NCBI GenBank assembly: GCA_048938005.1
Contig: JBHLMQ010000002.1
Location: forward strand, 64,001 to 128,000
From: Promethearchaeota archaeon
GTDB lineage: Archaea; Asgardarchaeota; Lokiarchaeia; Sigyniarchaeales; SOKP01
Direction: 5' to 3'
DNA: 64,000 nucleotides
Shown: piece by piece, positions 26,127 through 35,040 of the stretch
How the letters are laid out: the number at the start of each line of letters is the position of its first letter
Position numbering within the stretch: position 1 is the stretch's first letter
Position numbers and translations under genes: made by a program
The notes under the pieces: model-generated
What the model was told of the DNA's origin: nothing
Seen by the model: the letters and a program-made list of their open reading frames with translations, nothing else
Database searches by the model: none

Positions 26127-28991
26127 TTAAAATGATATACCCTTATTTCGCGCTATGTATTTAACTATCTCGAAGGATACAATACATATTAATGAGATTA
26201 GAAAGCAGACTAACCAATCGAGACCAGTTAAAAACATAAACATGAAATTAATACCTGAATCCGCCAAAAAAACTTGAACTCCAGGGATATACATCAGCAT
26301 TAAGTAAACAAGAAAAAGAAATCCTATAATTAGATAATTTCTTCGTTTACTGTCTTCTATAAAGCTTTTTATTAAAGACTTATTGGGACGTCTAATCTGA
26401 AAAACTAAAAAAGATTCACAGAAAAAGAGGGTTGTCATTAACATTGTAAGAGTTTTTCCCACTTTCAAATTAACACCATCTGAATACAGGTATAAATCAT
26501 TGAGTGCACCAAAATTCCAATTTTCAAAACTAACACCATAAATTCCACTATAAGTTATATAATAAACTAGAAGCATACTTACAGCCAGTAATATTCCATA
26601 TATGAATAAGAGACCAACAGTATTTTTTGAAAGGATTTCTTCCGAATCACGTGGTTTTTCTTTCATTACATCTTTAGACGTAGTGTCAAATGTGAGTATT
26701 AATCCCGGAAAGACATGTAAAGTTATCGCTAAAAATATCCATTGATAATAGAAAGGCTCATCTAAAAAGTATGGCAAATTAAGTACTATAGCTAAGATGA
26801 ATTGAACTATTCCTTCAAAAACATTTATACAAATATAAAAAAATACTACTGCTCGAATTCTTGCGAAAATTCCTCTTCCATGATTGATGCCTGTAACAAT
26901 CGAGTTGAAAGAATCATCTGAAATAACCATATCAGAAGCTTCTTTAGCTACATCTGTTCCGGTAATACCCATTGCGATTCCTACATCAGCCATGTTAAGT
27001 GCTAAAGCATCATTTACGCCATCTCCAGTCATCGCAACGACCTTATTCTCCTCCTGATATTTTTCTACAATATCCTCTTTATGTTCCGGAGAAACTCTGG
27101 CGAAAACTTTTACTGGTTTGAATTCTTCATATGATTTAATATCTTTAACCATCTTTCCCTCTACAGCTATTTCATTTTCATCAGTTACAATGGCAATTTG
27201 CGATGCTATGGCCCTTGCTGTAGTAGGGGAATCCCCTGTAATCATGACAACACCCACACCCGCTTCATGACACTGCCTTACTGATTCTCTTACCCCTTCT
27301 CTTGGAGGGTCCAATATTGTTACAAAACCAATAAAAATCAAATCCGATTCACTTACTTTTCTTCCTTCATCTCCTTCAGGTGGAATTGTATCCATTACTT
27401 TATAACATAAACTTAAAATCCTATAACCCTGATTAGCATATAAATTTACAATTTCCATTACCTTTCTCTTGATATCTTCAGTAAAATTAATTTCAATATC
27501 ATTATATAAAGCCTTGGCACAAAGTGGGATTAGAATTTCACTTGCTCCTTTTGAAAAAGAATAATAGGAGTGATTCCGTTTATAAAGTTTAGTCATCCTT
27601 TTCAATGTGGAATCAAAAGGATATTCTGTTATAGACTCAAAATCATCAAGAAGATAATCTCCCATCCCTTTTTGAAATAAAACCATAAGTGCTCCTTCTG
27701 TGGGAGAACCAACTACGTCCCACTTAGGAATTGTTCTACCAGAAACCGTGATTTCATTTTTTATTAATGCTGAATTGTTATTTAAGAATCCTGAAGTTAA
27801 TAATAATTTAAGAGAAGGATATTCCTCAATGTGTTTCACATAAACTGGATTTTTTGGATCATCCATTAAAATAATCTCTCCCTCTGGAGAATAACCACTA
27901 CCAGTAATTCTAAATATTGAACCATTCGTCCAAGCATGTTGAATAGACATCTGATTTTTTGTTAAAGTTCCTGTCTTATCTGAACAAACTACACTTACTC
28001 TTCCCAAACTATCTACAGATGCTAGATTTCTTATAATGACTCCTACTCGAGCCATAGCTAAGACTCCGGTGATTAGAACAATAGTCACAAGAAGTGGGAT
28101 ATTGATTGGCATAAGATCAAGGGCAGAATTCAGGCTTTCAACAAATTCAAGTCGTGTAAAACTACTTGCTACCCAAATTATTAAAAGTATTATCAACCAA
28201 AAAGTTACAATAATTAATCCTAGCCATTTACCAAAATTATTCATTTTTTGTCTTATAGGAATTTCACTTGTACCTGCCTCTTCTAAACCATGAGAAATCT
28301 TTCCTATCTCTGTATCTCCACCAACTTTCACTACTATAGATTTTCCATTTCCAGTTGTAATATAGGTCCCATAGAATACCATATTACTACGTTCACCAAT
28401 AGCAATATCTCTTTTGTTTATCGCTTTTCCTCTTTCTCCTTTTCTTACAGGTTCAGATTCTCCTGTCAATGATGCTTCATTTACTTCGAGGTTATGTGAT
28501 TCAATTATTCTAGCATCCGCAGGAATTTTGTCTCCTTGGTTCAATGCTAACAAGTCACCAATAACAATTTCTCTAGTTGGAATCTCCTGTTTTTGTCCAT
28601 CCCTGATTATTGTTGAAGTTGGAGCAGTTAATTCTCTTAGTGCTTTTAATTTCTTTGTAGCTCTATATTGTTGAATAATAGCAACCATACAGTTAAGAAA
28701 TACTATGAACAGAGTTAAACCAATGAAAGTCAAATTTCCCTCTGCTCCAAAAAGCACAGCTAAGAATAATATTATTGATGAAACTAAGTAAATCACGATT
28801 AACCAGTTAAATAGAGGAGCTAAATATATTTTAATAAACCCTTTTGAAACTTTAGGGATTTCATTGAATCCATATTTTTCTAAACGTTTTTTAACTTCCC
28901 TTTCGGACAATCCTTTATTAGGATCAGTTTTAAGTTCACGATAAATTTGCCCTAATTCAAGATTATAATAACTTACTTCTGCAGATTCCAT
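26127..28991 (-). CDS. P-type ATPase with P2-like scaffold and non-canonical transport site (M4 PINIP)
   Basis: LTGES, CSDKTGT, KGASE, DPPR, MITGD, TGDGVNDA and about 10 TM helices. Confidence 0.93.
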   Translation of the reverse strand: MESAEVSYYNLELGQIYRELKTDPNKGLSEREVKKRLEKYGFNEIPKVSKGFIKIYLAPLFNWLIVIYLVSSIILFLAVLFGAEGNLTFIGLTLFIVFLNCMVAIIQQYRATKKLKALRELTAPTSTIIRDGQKQEIPTREIVIGDLLALNQGDKIPADARIIESHNLEVNEASLTGESEPVRKGERGKAINKRDIAIGERSNMVFYGTYITTGNGKSIVVKVGGDTEIGKISHGLEEAGTSEIPIRQKMNNFGKWLGLIIVTFWLIILLIIWVASSFTRLEFVESLNSALDLMPINIPLLVTIVLITGVLAMARVGVIIRNLASVDSLGRVSVVCSDKTGTLTKNQMSIQHAWTNGSIFRITGSGYSPEGEIILMDDPKNPVYVKHIEEYPSLKLLLTSGFLNNNSALIKNEITVSGRTIPKWDVVGSPTEGALMVLFQKGMGDYLLDDFESITEYPFDSTLKRMTKLYKRNHSYYSFSKGASEILIPLCAKALYNDIEINFTEDIKRKVMEIVNLYANQGYRILSLCYKVMDTIPPEGDEGRKVSESDLIFIGFVTILDPPREGVRESVRQCHEAGVGVVMITGDSPTTARAIASQIAIVTDENEIAVEGKMVKDIKSYEEFKPVKVFARVSPEHKEDIVEKYQEENKVVAMTGDGVNDALALNMADVGIAMGITGTDVAKEASDMVISDDSFNSIVTGINHGRGIFARIRAVVFFYICINVFEGIVQFILAIVLNLPYFLDEPFYYQWIFLAITLHVFPGLILTFDTTSKDVMKEKPRDSEEILSKNTVGLLFIYGILLAVSMLLVYYITYSGIYGVSFENWNFGALNDLYLYSDGVNLKVGKTLTMLMTTLFFCESFLVFQIRRPNKSLIKSFIEDSKRRNYLIIGFLFLVYLMLMYIPGVQVFLADSGINFMFMFLTGLDWLVCFLISLICIVSFEIVKYIARNKGISF

Positions 28992-29116
28992 AGTGAGTCT
29001 TCCACAGTTTTTAATATAATTTAAAGATAATTGAATTCAAAATTCTAATCAATATAATAAATAACCAATAATAATCATGCTTTAAAAAATTAAATATTTC
29101 TTATCAAGAAGTATTT

Positions 29117-31987
29117 TTAAAAATAAATATTTCTCCTTCTAACAATGTATTTAAATATCTCAATACCGATTATACCAGGTAAAGCAAGTAAAATACAAAT
29201 TAACCAATCGTCAAAACTTAAGAATAAAAAATTTAAATTAAGACCAAGCAAGTTATTTATAAAACTATTTACTGAAGATGAGAAGCACACTAATAAGACA
29301 TGAATTGCCAATGCAAATAAACAAATGAAAAGAAGTGGTTTATACAATTCTTCAGTTATACTCTTATACGCTGATTTATTTGGCCGTCTAAACGTCCAAA
29401 CAAAAAATGCTTCGAAAACATATATTGTTGTAATAAACATTGTCCTTGCTTTCATCTGTGTTAATTCTAATGGAGTAGATCCTATTGGGATATAACTTAA
29501 AGATGGATTTGTATTCCAAGGATTTAAAGGTATAATGCCTCCTAAAGTCAGTTGCAAAGCTAAAAATAGACCTAGTCCTCCTAATAAAGCTTGTATTAAA
29601 AGTAAAATCCAGAGTTTTTTACTTAATAATTCTTCTTCATTCCTTGGAGGTTCTTTCATAACATCTTTAGGATGTATATCAATAACGAGCGCCAATGAAG
29701 GGAGAGAATGCATAATTCCAAAAATATATATGTGTTGCCAATTCGAAGCAAATAGCTCAAATCCAATAAAGGGTTCGATAAGTTCAAAGGTAAAAAATGT
29801 TACTCCCTCCATAATATTAATACATATAAAGAAAAAAATAATAGTCCTTATTTTAGCAAAAATTCCTCTCCCAATTTTAACCCCTTGCTTAATGGATGAA
29901 AAATTATCATCAGTTATTACCATATCTGAAGTTTCTTTAGCGAGGTCGGTTCCAGTAATTCCCATTGCTACTCCTGCATTAGCCAGTTTTAAAGCAGGTG
30001 CATCATTGATACCATCTCCTGTCATAGCGCAAATTAGATCCTGCTTTTGATAATTTTCTACAATAATTTCTTTATCAGTTGGTTCTACACGCGCAAAAAC
30101 AGTTGTTTTGTTAAACTCAGCTAAAGGTAATTCTTTTATTTGATTGCCCGCAGCAACGAGATCTCCCTCTCTGTAAATCTCCATTTCAGAAGCAATAGTT
30201 TTTGCCGTTGCTGGATGGTCTCCAGTTACCATTACAACTTTAACTCCCCCACTCTGGCATTCTTTAACAGATTCTTTAACTCCTTGTCGGGGTGGATCCA
30301 TTATTGAAACAAAACCTAAGAAAATTAACTCTTTTTCCACTTCTTCTCTTTTTAAATCATCAACTTTTTGTATATTTTTATAAGCAACTGCTAATGTTCT
30401 AAATCCTTGATTAGCACGCTCAATTATTTTGTTTAAAATTAGATTTTTAGATTTTTCATCAAGATCTTTTAAAATTCCATCGATTTCAATTTGAGATGAT
30501 ATTTCCAACATTCGTTCAGGAGCACCCTTTGAAAAAGCAATAACTGTTGGATTATTTTCAGCTGTAGTGCAAATAGTAGTCATTCTTTTAACTTCTGAAC
30601 TAAATGAAAACTCGGTTTTTTTATCATATCTATTCTTGATGTCATATGGGAATATTCCCGCTTTTTCTGCTAAAACCAGTAATGCTGCTTCTGTGGGAGA
30701 TCCATAAGCTCTCCTTACTGCTTTCTCTCTCATACCCTTTAATTTTACTTTAATATCTTCGAATTCAAGTCTTGCAGTATTATTAACAACAATTGAATCA
30801 ATAAATTTATTAAAAGTTTTATCAGCTTTTAAATCAATAGGTGTACTATTTTTTAAAATCAATCCCTCTGCATCATATCCAGCCCCGGTAACATTATATT
30901 CTTGTTCGTTTAGCCAAAATTTTTCAACAGTCATTTCATTTTTTGTAATTGTTCCAGTTTTGTCTGAAGCAATTACAGACACACGCCCAAGCGATTCAAT
31001 AGCAGATAAATTCTTTATGATCACTCCACTCTGAGCCATATTTAATACACCTGTAATAAGAACTAATGTAGAGAGTAATGGTAAATTAATAGGAACAACA
31101 TTCATTGCCCTTATTATAGAATCAGTAAAAGCATTTACAATTTCATCTTGAATAAGATTATTTTGAATAGCTAAAATGGTGAGTTTGAAGGATATTAAAA
31201 TAATTAGATTGATTATTACAATAATTCCAAGGATTTTTCCGAGTCTATTCAACTTTCTGGTTAGGGGAATATCTTCTATACTACCCATTTCATTTAAAGT
31301 CTGGGAAATTTTTCCAATTTCTGTTTTAGTCCCTGTACCTGTTATTAATTCTTTTGCATTTCCAGTATAAACGTAAGTTCCCATAAATACCATATTGGAT
31401 TGATTTTGAATAGGTAATTGTTTTTTCTCTAAAGTATCACTATATTTTTCTACCGGCTCACTTTCACCTGTTAAAGGCGCTTCATCAACACTTAAATTCA
31501 TAGATTCTATAATACGGCCATCAGCAGGAATTTTATCCCCTTGCGTGAGTATAACTATATCTCCGGGAATTAAATCTCTCGTATTTACCTCAATATGTTT
31601 ACCATCTCTTAGGACAGTTGCTTTAAGTGCAGAAATTTCTCTTAGGGATTCTAATGCTTTTTGTGCTCGAAATTGCTGGATTATAGCGGTGATCGAATTA
31701 ATTATAACTACTGTAAAAGTTATTATCTGTGTGTCACCCCTACCTAATATTACGATAATGATTCCAGTTATAAGGAGAATCATTATTAAGAAATTGAAAA
31801 GAGGTGCAAGGTAAATTTTCCATATACTTTTCTTAATCTTAGGTAATTCATTGTAACCATATTTTAGATATCTTTCACTCAATACAGAAGATTTTAATCC
31901 CTGATCTGGATCAGTATTAAATCTCTCTAATAATTCATTAATAGGTAGATTATAATAAAATTCATCAGATCCAAGTTTGATTGACAT
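29117..31987 (-). CDS. P-type ATPase with P2-like scaffold and non-canonical transport site (M4 PINLP); tandem paralog
   Basis: LTGES, ASDKTGT, KGAPE, DPPR, MVTGD, TGDGINDAP and about 10 TM helices. Confidence 0.93.
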   Translation of the reverse strand: MSIKLGSDEFYYNLPINELLERFNTDPDQGLKSSVLSERYLKYGYNELPKIKKSIWKIYLAPLFNFLIMILLITGIIIVILGRGDTQIITFTVVIINSITAIIQQFRAQKALESLREISALKATVLRDGKHIEVNTRDLIPGDIVILTQGDKIPADGRIIESMNLSVDEAPLTGESEPVEKYSDTLEKKQLPIQNQSNMVFMGTYVYTGNAKELITGTGTKTEIGKISQTLNEMGSIEDIPLTRKLNRLGKILGIIVIINLIILISFKLTILAIQNNLIQDEIVNAFTDSIIRAMNVVPINLPLLSTLVLITGVLNMAQSGVIIKNLSAIESLGRVSVIASDKTGTITKNEMTVEKFWLNEQEYNVTGAGYDAEGLILKNSTPIDLKADKTFNKFIDSIVVNNTARLEFEDIKVKLKGMREKAVRRAYGSPTEAALLVLAEKAGIFPYDIKNRYDKKTEFSFSSEVKRMTTICTTAENNPTVIAFSKGAPERMLEISSQIEIDGILKDLDEKSKNLILNKIIERANQGFRTLAVAYKNIQKVDDLKREEVEKELIFLGFVSIMDPPRQGVKESVKECQSGGVKVVMVTGDHPATAKTIASEMEIYREGDLVAAGNQIKELPLAEFNKTTVFARVEPTDKEIIVENYQKQDLICAMTGDGINDAPALKLANAGVAMGITGTDLAKETSDMVITDDNFSSIKQGVKIGRGIFAKIRTIIFFFICINIMEGVTFFTFELIEPFIGFELFASNWQHIYIFGIMHSLPSLALVIDIHPKDVMKEPPRNEEELLSKKLWILLLIQALLGGLGLFLALQLTLGGIIPLNPWNTNPSLSYIPIGSTPLELTQMKARTMFITTIYVFEAFFVWTFRRPNKSAYKSITEELYKPLLFICLFALAIHVLLVCFSSSVNSFINNLLGLNLNFLFLSFDDWLICILLALPGIIGIEIFKYIVRRRNIYF

Positions 31988-32109: not shown

Positions 32110-33060
32110 TCAAGGATCTCCAAGGAGATCTCTTAAAGTATGATATTTCTTTCTAATTGTAGTACTTGAGAATTTACTATATTTCTCGATAAGGCTTTGC
32201 GTAAAAATCTTCCTGTTTTCTAGAGTTTGTGAAATATAATAAATTAATCCTGCTACAAAAGCCTTATAATTAATGTTTTGAATGTTTTCATATGTAATTT
32301 CATTGAGAATTTTATCCGCTGATAACTGCATATTAAGCTTTATCTTTTCGAATTGAGCCTTGTTTGAAAAAAAATCTTGCACCTCTTCAAAAGGAATACT
32401 GTTTAAATCTTTTTGAAAAACTATCTTTATTCTATTTTTAATTTGTTTTTCTAAATCTGTAGGGCTCATCTTTTCTTTAAACATCTTCTCCGTCCTTTTC
32501 ACTTTTAACATAGCGTTATTAAGCATTTTTTTATTAATTTTATGACCTAACTCTCTCGATACATCAATATATTCTTCGATTCGTATATTTGTAGTATCTT
32601 TTATTTGCATCCATACAATAGCAAGAAAAATTATAACCATATTTTGATAATTGTGGCGATGGTATTTATTATAGCGTAAATAGCGATCTTTAATTTCTTG
32701 ATACTTTACGTTATCAATATTTAATCCAATCCCATGACTTTTAAGTAATTCAATTGTTTTTTTTTGCTCAGTAAAGTCAGATTCATAGTCTCTGAACCAT
32801 TTTTCAAGTGTTTTTATTCGGTCATATTTTTCTTTGATTACAGGATCTTGAAGTGCTTTAGAATCACCTACCCTAATTCTTCTTTCATAATCTCTCTGTG
32901 CTTCTGTAAAAAACTCACTTGTTGATCTTGTATCCGCGAAAGCAACTTTATCTTCCATAATTAAGCCACAATCTTGGCAAACAATAAAACCACTATCTTG
33001 TTTGGTATTCTTATGAGAGCACTCAGAGATTTCCGAAATAACTTTCTTTTTATCTTTCAA
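32110..33060 (-). CDS. Divergent TFB/TFIIB-related protein (Zn ribbon plus cyclin-like repeats)
   Basis: N-terminal CSH..GFIVCQDCGL ribbon. C-terminal AFVAGLIYY...TQS......SSTTIRKKY..L parallels the second cyclin repeat of TFB. TTG start. Confidence 0.65.
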   Translation of the reverse strand: MKDKKKVISEISECSHKNTKQDSGFIVCQDCGLIMEDKVAFADTRSTSEFFTEAQRDYERRIRVGDSKALQDPVIKEKYDRIKTLEKWFRDYESDFTEQKKTIELLKSHGIGLNIDNVKYQEIKDRYLRYNKYHRHNYQNMVIIFLAIVWMQIKDTTNIRIEEYIDVSRELGHKINKKMLNNAMLKVKRTEKMFKEKMSPTDLEKQIKNRIKIVFQKDLNSIPFEEVQDFFSNKAQFEKIKLNMQLSADKILNEITYENIQNINYKAFVAGLIYYISQTLENRKIFTQSLIEKYSKFSSTTIRKKYHTLRDLLGDP

Positions 33061-33212: not shown

Positions 33213-33797
33213 ATGGAATATAAAAAAGTTCTTAAATTTGTTGAAATCGTTGGTTCTATATTTATAATTATTTCAATAATCGAGATTGCATATATTATTT
33301 TGTTAAATTTTACTCAATTTAATATTGATGGTACCTCACTTATGTTATCAGAATTTATTTATTCTGCCTCAATCATCCCACTTTCAGGAACAATATTATG
33401 GCTTTTCCTGAATGCTTCTATGGTTTGTTTTTTAATCCTTGGAATTTTCATGTATAAGATAGCTTCAGATAAAAACATTGAAAGCAACCCATTAGCAAAA
33501 TTTTTAGTTGTTAATGGTATGGTGATTCTATTAGTAGGTTTTGTTAAAATGAATTATTTAGTACTATTAGGAAAAGAAAAGATTACAACCCTTTCCGGCT
33601 CAATTCCTTTTCAAACTGCGCTTTTTGATCGTAATATTACTCCACTTATGCCTGGAATATTCTGGACTTTCTTTATTTCAGTAAATTGTGCGATTTTAAT
33701 AACTGGACTAGCAGTAACAGCAGTTGGAATAAAATGGACTCTCCTAAAAGAACAAGCTGAAAAATCTAAATTAAATATTCAAAAAGAGAAAAAATAA
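33213..33797 (+). CDS. Hypothetical 4-TM membrane protein
   Basis: 194 aa ORF with four hydrophobic segments. Confidence 0.7.
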   Translation: MEYKKVLKFVEIVGSIFIIISIIEIAYIILLNFTQFNIDGTSLMLSEFIYSASIIPLSGTILWLFLNASMVCFLILGIFMYKIASDKNIESNPLAKFLVVNGMVILLVGFVKMNYLVLLGKEKITTLSGSIPFQTALFDRNITPLMPGIFWTFFISVNCAILITGLAVTAVGIKWTLLKEQAEKSKLNIQKEKK

Positions 33798-33799
33798 GT

Positions 33800-34726
33800 T
33801 TAAGATAATTTACTTTTTATTTGTTTTGCACGAGAACGTAGAGTAACCTCTGTAATCTTAGCTACATCAGCTACTTTTGATTGGGTTTTACGAATTGAAC
33901 CATTTTTAGCTGCAATATAAATACAAGCAGCAGCTAATCCTTTCGGGTCTTTTCCAGTCCTTTTTAACCCATTTTTAGAAGCGTCTTTTAACATATTAAT
34001 TGCGGTTTTTTGAATCTGAATAGGTAAGTCGAGCTCATTCCCAAATCGAAATACCAATGATTCCGCAGTTATTGGCTGATATCTTAAATTAAGTTCTGGT
34101 AACACCTCTCGAATAATCATAGCTAAACTTCTGTGAACAGTCCTTCTTGGTGTTAATGATGCTTCACAAATCTCATCTAATAATCGTGGAAAATCATGAA
34201 CGCGAATAGAAGCATATAATGACCCAGAAATAAATCCATTTATTGATCTCCCCATAGTCAATTTCTTTTTCGCGACTACACTGTATATTTTCCAGGCAGT
34301 TTCGGCAATATATTCTGGGATATTGAGTTTAGAAGTTAGCATTTTCAATTTAGGCTTTGCTTCCCAAAAATTCCTTTCAATGCTTGAAATTAATGAGTTT
34401 TGAATTTTTGAGAGTCGAGAGAAAAGGGCTTGCTCTTTGGCACCTATACTCTTCCCCTTGCTGTCTGTCTTAGTGTTCGGGAGCATAGTGCGAGGTCCAA
34501 AATCCCTCCAACGAGGTTCTGTCCTACGTCGGTTCTGTATTTCCTCGATTGTATACGCGCGTCTTTCATTTCCGACAAAGGTTCTTTCGAAGATGACTCC
34601 GCAATTTAGACAAACTTTATTTCCATCCCGAGATTCAATAAACGGATTATCACAGCATTCAGATTGGGGTAATTGATTTTCATCGATTTTAGTATTTTTC
34701 AAAAAGTCACGATATTGCTCATTCAT
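33800..34726 (-). CDS. tfb: Transcription initiation factor IIB (TFB)
   Basis: Zn ribbon (CC..VCLNCG), ERRAY..RRRTEP, RLSKIQ, ERN, LTMGRS, GKDPKGLAAACIY and TQ.KVA.VAKITEVTLRSR. ATG 34726 preferred over TTG 34753. Confidence 0.93.
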   Translation of the reverse strand: MNEQYRDFLKNTKIDENQLPQSECCDNPFIESRDGNKVCLNCGVIFERTFVGNERRAYTIEEIQNRRRTEPRWRDFGPRTMLPNTKTDSKGKSIGAKEQALFSRLSKIQNSLISSIERNFWEAKPKLKMLTSKLNIPEYIAETAWKIYSVVAKKKLTMGRSINGFISGSLYASIRVHDFPRLLDEICEASLTPRRTVHRSLAMIIREVLPELNLRYQPITAESLVFRFGNELDLPIQIQKTAINMLKDASKNGLKRTGKDPKGLAAACIYIAAKNGSIRKTQSKVADVAKITEVTLRSRAKQIKSKLS

Positions 34727-35040
34727 AGTGATCACGGGGTAACAAATTGTCAAAAAAGCGCTAACTACATCATATCACAGCTATTAATTTATTAATATAC
34801 GGTGATATGCTTATAGATCAAAGTTATGTATTTAAATATTTTGAAAAAAGATTGTTGAATGTGATTTTTTCTGAATTTTTTTTTAATAAATTATAAAGAG
34901 ATAAGGCTATTTTATCAATTTTTAAAAAATAAAATAAAAAATTTGTCAAAGTGTTTAATTTCTTATTAATTATTAGTGATTAGGTCAATATTCTACAGAA
35001 TGTTTTAATTGAAAAATAGAAAAAAAAGGATTTTTTATTT

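Follow-up and report, generated by a model that had tools for sequence, protein, structure and literature searches.

Which substrate does a P-type ATPase carry once the residues by which its nearest relatives hold Ca2+ have been exchanged? The question is raised by two adjacent genes of a Promethearchaeota archaeon, here called gene A and gene B, which lie in the window, i.e. the whole stretch of 64,000 nucleotides (nt) analysed (contig JBHLMQ010000002.1, positions 64,001 to 128,000; G+C about 30%). A preliminary description of this DNA had read them as P2-like pumps with altered membrane motifs, not as ordinary Ca2+ pumps, and possibly as relatives or convergent analogues of the P4 lipid flippases. 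We put at roughly 0.7 the probability that both are, as predicted, catalytically competent P-type ATPases of one monophyletic, almost Asgard-restricted offshoot of the P2A Ca2+-ATPases, with one remodelled cation site. They probably pump an ion other than Ca2+ and are probably not lipid flippases.

Sequence motifs of the two ATPases

Both proteins, which are 42% identical over their full length, have the P2/P3-type architecture in Pfam, consisting of Cation_ATPase_N, E1-E2_ATPase (E-values 3.7e-46 and 1.8e-40; paired values refer to genes A and B, in this order, throughout), Cation_ATPase, Hydrolase and Cation_ATPase_C. With 302 and 280 bits against TIGR01494 (cut-off 62), both belong to the P-type superfamily. 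Columns of the ion sites were numbered after SERCA, whose Ca2+ ligands we take to be E309, N768, E771, N796, T799, D800 and E908. In the fourth transmembrane helix (M4; the helices are M1 to M10), the translations read LMPINIPLL in gene A and VVPINLPLL in gene B; the M6 stretch is QWIFLAITLHVFP in gene A and QHIYIFGIMHSLP in gene B, which leaves A-I-T-L-H and F-G-I-M-H at the N-x-x-x-D columns. In the alignment with the solved LMCA1, PINI faces PEAL and AITLHVFP faces NLVNDSLP, and His759 of gene A presumably occupies the column of SERCA D800. Neither protein has the site-II ligands (M4 Glu; M6 N-x-x-x-D), and the predicted Ca2+ site II is thereby gone from these P2A-derived pumps. The sequence observations of the preliminary description, namely intact DKTGT, TGES and GDGxND motifs, PINIP and PINLP instead of PEGLP in M4, the exchange of Asp for His in M6, and a retained M5 N-x-x-E and M8 Glu in both genes, are correct in all checkable details, as judged by the translations, the recomputed coordinates (Table 1) and the LMCA1 alignment.

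Conservation of the predicted ion site

For close homologues, the 120 best matches per paralogue, query included, were aligned (240 sequences). Identities to the query were 71-100% for gene A and 65-100% for gene B among the 120 best homologues listed for each. The pattern did not arise by chance: all 240 sequences carry P-[ILV]-N-[IL]-P in M4, the Asn and Glu of M5, the His of M6, the Glu of M8 and DKTGT; the motif of the actuator (A) domain is TGES in 232 and SGES in the other 8. Since TGES, DKTGT and GDGxND are intact in genes A and B, and in 240/240 homologues when the eight SGES sequences are counted, both proteins are predicted to be catalytically competent.

At greater depth, P295 and E726 (gene A numbering) are invariant among 58 diverse family rows, and N297, P299, N723, H759, P762, E859 and the M2 pair Q107/Q108 are at least 90% conserved. 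When 38 family rows were compared with 31 canonical rows, i.e. PEGLP-type Ca2+-ATPases, the column of the M6 Asp held His in 37/38 of the former and Asp in 29/31 of the latter; further columns that separate the two sets are N62 in M1 (canonical D or S), Q108 in M2 (canonical E in 30/31), N297 (canonical G), R331 and N404, and the M7-M8 loop is longer in the family, with a conserved Asn. Family-wide, the M4 Glu is thus replaced by Ile, Val or Leu and the adjacent Gly by Asn, the M6 Asn by Ser, Thr, Ala or Phe and the M6 Asp by His, the M1 acidic column (commonest canonical letter Asp) by Asn, and the Glu at the end of M2 by Gln. The changes in M1, M2 and M4 mean that, besides the M6 site, acidic residues are neutralised in these columns as well, and the predicted acidic machinery for Ca2+ is replaced throughout the clade. 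What is left is a near-invariant polar cluster of Asn297 (M4), Asn723 and Glu726 (M5), His759 (M6) and Glu859 (M8).

We define the subfamily, hereafter PxNxP/His, by M4 P-hydrophobic-N-hydrophobic-P/V/I, M5 N-x-x-E, M6 His-x-x-Pro, M8 Glu, an M2 ending in QQ, and monophyly; genes A and B show all of the motif columns and fall within the clade.

A few members have Ser in place of the M4 Asn: PISIP in one genome (G074, locus L101), and PVSIP and PWSFP in two representatives (P0267 and P0275), with P0267 also lacking the M6 His. They could be sub-lineages with yet another specificity.

Phylogenetic position and range

A tree was inferred with an IQ-TREE quick search (LG+G4) from 72 rows and 807 columns, from which the motif columns of M4, M5, M6 and M8 had been dropped on purpose. 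The rows comprised 38 family members, 31 PEGLP-type sequences (30 of 97 eligible representatives, taken as every third, and the genome's own copy) and an outgroup of 3 (the genome's own P3A pump and two P1B pumps), with fragments left out. Even with the motif columns removed, the 38 family rows form one clade with a Shimodaira-Hasegawa-like approximate likelihood ratio (SH-aLRT) support of 100, and family and PEGLP-type rows together are split from the P3A and P1B rows with a support of 96. In this tree, which holds no eukaryotic references, the family has a P2A-like position next to the 31 PEGLP-type representatives. The substitutions therefore mark a whole clade and not two odd genes. Genes A and B fall into different sub-clades, so the duplication that separates them goes far back in the family.

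An exhaustive HMMER search of 1.84 billion representatives clustered at 50% identity returned 90,349 matches, of which the best 150 were read. Among these, the 35 top-scoring ones (P0241-P0275, 1095 to 535 bits) belong to the family, as do nine of lower rank (eight fragments and the full-length P0297), and from rank 36 on (525 bits or less) the pattern switches to PEGLP and NLVTDxLP. Wherever M4 or M6 was covered, the family pattern was found, in 43 of the 44 members; the remaining fragment (P0322) was counted by its 81% identity alone. A family profile built from the 58-row alignment scores full-length members at 997 bits or more and PEGLP-type pumps at 894 bits or less. At E ≤ 1e-280 it detects the family in 202/301 Asgard species genomes, in 69/90 of those of high quality and in 13/30 GTDB families; a looser single-protein search gave 277/301 genomes, but there ordinary Ca2+ pumps are counted too.

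Where homologues carry organism labels, nearly all are Asgard (Promethearchaeota, Loki-, Thor-, Odin-, Heimdall-, Hod- and Hermodarchaeota), with one row labelled just 'bacterium'. Thirty deep clusters were looked up by exact sequence, and the eight with organism names are seven Asgard archaea and one Korarchaeota. The 80 loci related to gene A bear 67 Asgard titles, 11 titles of the form 'uncultured archaeon' and 2 bacterial names. In the ESM Atlas, only generic P-type ATPase clusters were found, the first of them mostly Promethearchaeota.

The two loci with bacterial names (L049 and L070, a Nanopelagicaceae bin and an Aerophobetes bin) contain both pumps of the A/B pair, with 66-72% identity to gene A, and are probably mis-binned Asgard DNA.

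Full-text literature searches found no description or characterisation of this subfamily, and a 2023 review of the open questions of the field does not, in its available excerpts, mention Asgard archaea, and calls P4 and P5 ATPases unique to eukaryotes (PMC10654040). The preliminary description had asked whether the motif belongs to an already characterised, widespread prokaryotic subfamily; the subfamily is indeed widespread within Asgard archaea, but no characterised one emerged from the literature searches. It is thus an undescribed subfamily, widespread in one phylum and mis-annotated.

The family occurs in roughly two out of three of the Asgard species genomes sampled, and paralogue A shows 71-91% identity over the 119 best homologues listed; both findings point to a housekeeping role, presumably in ion or membrane physiology, for the archaeal lineage nearest to eukaryotes. 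For the predicted ion-site chemistry (one His, two Asn, two Glu) we found no match among characterised P2 pumps, which makes the family a clean target for expression, transport assays and cryo-electron microscopy. Once identified, the cargo would extend the P-type ATPases by a new specificity class and help to reconstruct the set of pumps that the archaeal ancestor of eukaryotes possessed.

Structural model and probable cargo

The AlphaFold2 model (mean predicted local distance difference test score, pLDDT, 82.8; predicted template modelling score, pTM, 0.75) has M4 unwound at residues 292-296 and M6 at 758-760, and the 49 Foldseek matches listed from the PDB are all P2 pumps (SPCA1, SERCA, LMCA1, H,K-ATPase and Na,K-ATPase). 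With two Glu, one His and two Asn near-invariant in the membrane core, the region looks like an ion site. We propose that the proteins would run a normal E1/E2 phosphoenzyme cycle and carry one small cation per cycle, other than Ca2+, at a remodelled site in the position of the old site I, built from N297, N723, E726, H759 and E859. His759 would serve either as a ligand or as a built-in counter-ion; in the latter case the pump would be electrogenic and free of counter-transport.

Regarding the cargo, we give a monovalent cation (H+ or Na+) about an even chance, since the acidic columns of M1, M2 and M4 are neutralised and M4 resembles that of P3 pumps. A borderline divalent metal (Zn, Mn, Fe, Co or Ni) is a more tentative candidate, put forward because a pocket of His, Glu and Asn would suit such a metal. 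Ca2+ after all would be an unlikely cargo, and a non-ionic one more unlikely still; what is left of the odds goes to other cargoes.

Several points weigh against this proposal. The odds for the individual cargoes are drawn solely from residue chemistry, and His does not usually serve as a ligand of Na+ or K+. The equivalence of the M8 Glu is weakly aligned. The tree contains no eukaryotic P2, P3, P4 or P5 references, whose place is taken by profile scores with controls, and the profile threshold was calibrated on family rows that were also training rows. Beside the P3A pump of the same genome, a further H+ pump would be partly redundant, and two P1B metal pumps are already present. The conserved neighbours of the pair in the window look like general synteny among close relatives, and in four other Asgard genomes the genes around family members bear no relation to one another.

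Likeness to P3A, P1B-4 and P2C pumps

The genome encodes, separately from genes A and B, a canonical Ca2+-ATPase with PEGL and N-x-x-x-D, two P1B pumps of the CPC type, and a homologue of the P3A H+-ATPases (contig C37:13477-15942, locus L125; 984 bits against TIGR01647, cut-off 615) with PVALP in M4 and LLNDIP in M6. With P3A pumps of the AHA2/Pma1 type, the family shares a hydrophobic Ile or Val at the column of the M4 Glu and the second proline; in both, transport of one ion per cycle would be probable and the use of a built-in counter-ion plausible. In contrast to P3A pumps, which carry the proton on an Asp in M6 (the LLNDIP of the genome's own copy), the family has His there, and its M5 has N-x-x-E where that of the genome's P3A pump is different; the two stand on separate branches of the tree, and genes A and B reach only 355 and 341 bits against TIGR01647. 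Excerpts of PMC10654040 call the function of prokaryotic P3A pumps undetermined.

In P1B-4 metal pumps (sCoaT, with HEGxT in M6), a His of M6 at the level of the ion site is functionally essential, and excerpts of PMC8880997 propose that this residue of HEGxT acts as a built-in counter-ion and perhaps also as a ligand. These pumps form a different P-type class, with P1B topology and SPC in M4, and we regard the likeness as an analogy without homology of the motifs.

When M5-M10 of gene A was searched alone (residues 690-954; 26130-26924, minus strand), the best matches of solved structure were Na,K-ATPase alpha-4 and the non-gastric H,K-ATPase, at an E-value of 4e-10 for these P2C pumps against 3e-7 for SERCA, a small margin. 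The local likeness lies in the M7-M8 loop, which in Na,K- and H,K-ATPases binds the beta subunit. We considered a P2C-like M7-M8 loop as a trait of the family and rejected it, the likeness being confined to clade A; no gene for a beta subunit was found among the ten open reading frames (ORFs) scanned near the A/B pair. M4 and M6 of the family lack the acidic ligands (Asp and Glu) of P2C pumps, and the two proteins score 385 and 361 bits with the P2C model, whose cut-off is 946.

Comparison with Ca2+-ATPases

That genes A and B encode Ca2+ (or Mn2+) pumps after all, with a variant set of ligands at site I, is improbable, although their nearest relatives are Ca2+ pumps. The best sequence matches of solved structure are LMCA1 (PDB 6zhf), SPCA1 and SERCA1 (E-values 1e-122, 1e-117 and 1e-102), and the best NCBIfam model is the PMR1-type TIGR01522. 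The family shares with P2A pumps the Pfam architecture, TGES, DKTGT, GDGxND, M5 N-x-x-E, the M8 Glu, the grouping in the tree and the best fold matches; the retained M5 Asn and Glu and M8 Glu are presumably site-I ligands in SERCA. Public records label homologues as Ca2+-transporting or cation-translocating, and one paper may apply the label Ca2+-ATPase to them. The scores themselves stay far under every equivalog cut-off, with 480 and 472 bits for TIGR01522 (cut-off 798), 424 and 448 for TIGR01116 (703), and 384 and 396 for TIGR01517 (507). The NCBIfam scores of the family lie at 437-521 bits and those of ordinary prokaryotic members at 604-711, each below the cut-off of 798.

Where P2A pumps have PEGLP, the family has P-I-N-I/L-P; its M6 has lost the Asn and exchanged the Asp for His, its M1 has Asn for Asp, its M2 ends in Gln instead of Glu, and its M7-M8 loop is extended around a conserved Asn. 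Hence nothing remains of site II (M4 Glu, M6 Asn and Asp), which is more widely conserved than any other Ca2+ site; the central Asp common to both sites is His, the acidic columns of M1, M2 and M4 are lost, and a canonical Ca2+-ATPase is encoded in the same genome. The preliminary description's view that these are not ordinary Ca2+ pumps, and that selection has acted on the substitutions, is upheld by their fixation across a large monophyletic clade and, for the former, by the separate canonical pump.

According to excerpts of PMC7997004, all five Asgard proteomes studied there hold orthologues of a putative Ca2+ ATPase (TC 3.A.3.2.21), which was read as support for Ca2+ signalling; these orthologues may be family proteins or the canonical pump. 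Should they include the family, from which the Ca2+ ligands are gone, that inference would not hold for the family proteins.

Comparison with P4 and P5 ATPases

Still less probable is that the proteins flip lipids or carry another organic cargo (e.g. a polyamine), either as relatives of P4 or P5 ATPases or by convergence from P2A in Asgard archaea. The offshoot would then have left ion transport, with a neutralised acidic path along which a lipid head group or an organic amine would pass, which is a very doubtful course of events. If it had taken place, it would form a parallel, in the closest archaeal kin of eukaryotes, to the step that produced P4 and P5 ATPases, and A and B would perhaps serve two cargoes. 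Asgard archaea are the closest known archaeal kin of eukaryotes, and this relationship of the host phylum counts for the idea, as do the hydrophobic residue at the M4 Glu column, shared with the PISL of P4 flippases (ATP8A2, Drs2p), the few members with Ser for the M4 Asn (PISIP, PVSIP, PWSFP), and the neutralised acidic columns of M1, M2 and M4.

The Ile at this column, however, is common to P3 H+ pumps: according to excerpts of a P4 review, the place of the PEGL Glu is likewise taken by Ile or Val in P3 ATPases, AHA2 among them (PMC4937031), and the P3A pump of the same genome has PVALP. The first proline of M4 is found in all P-type ATPases. The resemblance to P4 thus seems to come down to one residue that is not specific to P4. 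The motifs of P4 pumps are given in the same excerpts as DGET in the A domain and PISL without the second proline, whereas the family has TGES, keeps the second proline in 240/240 rows and conserves the core Glu and His. Against TIGR01652 (P4; cut-off 431), five family members score 89-113 bits (gene A 108, gene B 106, three deeper members 89-113), just as three PEGLP-type Ca2+-ATPases do (96-110). Against TIGR01657 (P5; cut-off 618), the family scores 223-241 bits (241 and 236 for genes A and B), compared with 212-274 for control Ca2+-ATPases, and M4 contains no double proline, whereas PP(E/A)LP defines P5A pumps in excerpts of PMC10654040, in which P4 pumps are also described as unique to eukaryotes. 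The Pfam lists hold Cation_ATPase_N and Cation_ATPase_C and no P4- or P5-specific family at E ≤ 0.001, all 49 listed Foldseek matches are P2 pumps, and two Glu, one His and two Asn are near-invariant in the membrane core. CDC50 (PF03381) gave no match in the 95%-complete genome of the window, in a search run without a positive control, and nothing CDC50-like was found among the ten neighbouring ORFs scanned. Nothing found here favours a lipid or organic cargo. The relation or analogy to P4 flippases suggested in the preliminary description is consequently not supported by the P4 scores, the TGES motif, the second proline, the Ile/Val shared with P3 pumps and the conserved cluster of Glu, His and Asn, and the caveat entered there, that TGES and the second M4 proline are kept, has proved well founded.

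Gene arrangement and neighbourhood

The positions of genes A and B and of their motifs are collected in Table 1.

Table 1. Positions of the two ATPase genes and their motifs in the window
Feature	Position	Strand	Description
Gene A (P0001)	26127-28991	minus	954 amino acids; P-type ATPase, Asgard PxNxP/His subfamily, clade A
Gene B (P0002)	29117-31987	minus	956 amino acids; paralogue, same subfamily, clade B; upstream of A on the same strand
B-A intergenic spacer	28992-29116	minus	125 nt, 82% A+T
Gene A TGES	28455-28466	minus	Translated ORF
Gene A M4 PINIP, residues 295-299	28095-28109	minus	Ile at the Glu column of PEGLP, Asn at the Gly column
Gene A DKTGT phosphorylation motif, residues 338-342	27966-27980	minus	Translated ORF
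Gene A GDGVND	27009-27026	minus	Translated ORF
Gene A M5 INVFE, residues 722-726	26814-26828	minus	Asn723 and Glu726 retained
Gene A M6 LHVFP, residues 758-762	26706-26720	minus	His759 where Ca2+ pumps have the ligand Asp
Gene A M8 FCESF, residues 857-861	26409-26423	minus	Glu859 retained; least certain alignment column
Gene B TGES	31460-31471	minus	Translated ORF
Gene B M4 PINLP, residues 299-303	31079-31093	minus	PINLP in 119/120 clade-B rows, PVNLP in 1
Gene B DKTGT phosphorylation motif, residues 342-346	30950-30964	minus	Translated ORF
Gene B GDGIND	30002-30019	minus	Translated ORF
Gene B M5 INIME	29807-29821	minus	Translated ORF
Gene B M6 MHSLP, residues 759-763	29699-29713	minus	His760; translated ORF
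Gene B M8 VFEAF	29405-29419	minus	Translated ORF

Among the 65 related loci whose upstream DNA measures 3.1 kb or more, 64 (all but L069) have gene B upstream of gene A on the same strand, with a gap of 74 to 2868 nt (median about 150 nt); in four shorter related loci, B is truncated. All tandem loci come from the GTDB family or order of the window. Five other Asgard genomes were inspected: in three of them one family member each was seen, a fourth has four scattered copies, and none is in tandem; in the fifth, none was among the loci read (three P-type ATPase places lie outside these), and the profile search scored a match there. With tandem copies confined to close relatives and scattered copies elsewhere, the arrangement is not a family-wide trait but a lineage feature, fixed only in the GTDB family of the window, and the A/B pair is an old duplication inside the clade. 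The notion that A and B form an obligate heteromer, or that one regulates the other, draws on the close, same-strand spacing and the strong conservation of both paralogues, yet is highly unlikely given that neither paralogue has lost a catalytic motif or any part of the membrane site, that three other Asgard lineages show one family member per genome and a fourth only scattered ones, and that synteny alone can explain tandem loci found in close relatives only. The sequencing runs listed as containing the sequence are 20 DNA runs and no RNA runs.

As a clue to the cargo, gene context was tried and discarded: the ORFs of the 80 related loci were clustered and the neighbours scanned with Pfam, and no recurring regulator, chaperone or subunit was found. 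The neighbours near the A/B pair, which show general synteny only, are GNAT, DUF362, a luciferase-like gene, TFIIB, a TFB-like gene with a Zn-ribbon and a small membrane protein that matches nothing in Pfam.

The stretches 32110-33060 and 33800-34753 (both minus strand), upstream of gene B, hold a TFIIB gene and a second gene, which encodes 316 amino acids with only a weak match to the TFIIB zinc ribbon and is possibly a divergent TFB paralogue; ORF clusters that match this pair in size and strand occur in 56 and 44 of the 80 related loci, the assignment of clusters to genes being inferred. Divergently oriented and two genes away from the pumps, 33213-33797 (plus strand) encodes a hydrophobic, apparently multi-span protein of 194 amino acids without a Pfam match, and an ORF cluster matching it in size and strand occurs in 54/80 related loci.

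Two further ORFs lie beside family ATPases of other genomes. In genome G075 (L117:11225-13210, plus strand), an ORF of 661 amino acids overlaps the stop codon of the ATPase gene by 4 nt and matches PF09743 (E3 UFM1-protein ligase; E-value 1.5e-10) over one short stretch; it may be a eukaryote-like gene of Asgard archaea. In genome G213, one of the four family ATPases is followed a short way downstream by an ORF of the presenilin family (L122:11833-13206, plus strand; PF01080, E-value 1.2e-19).

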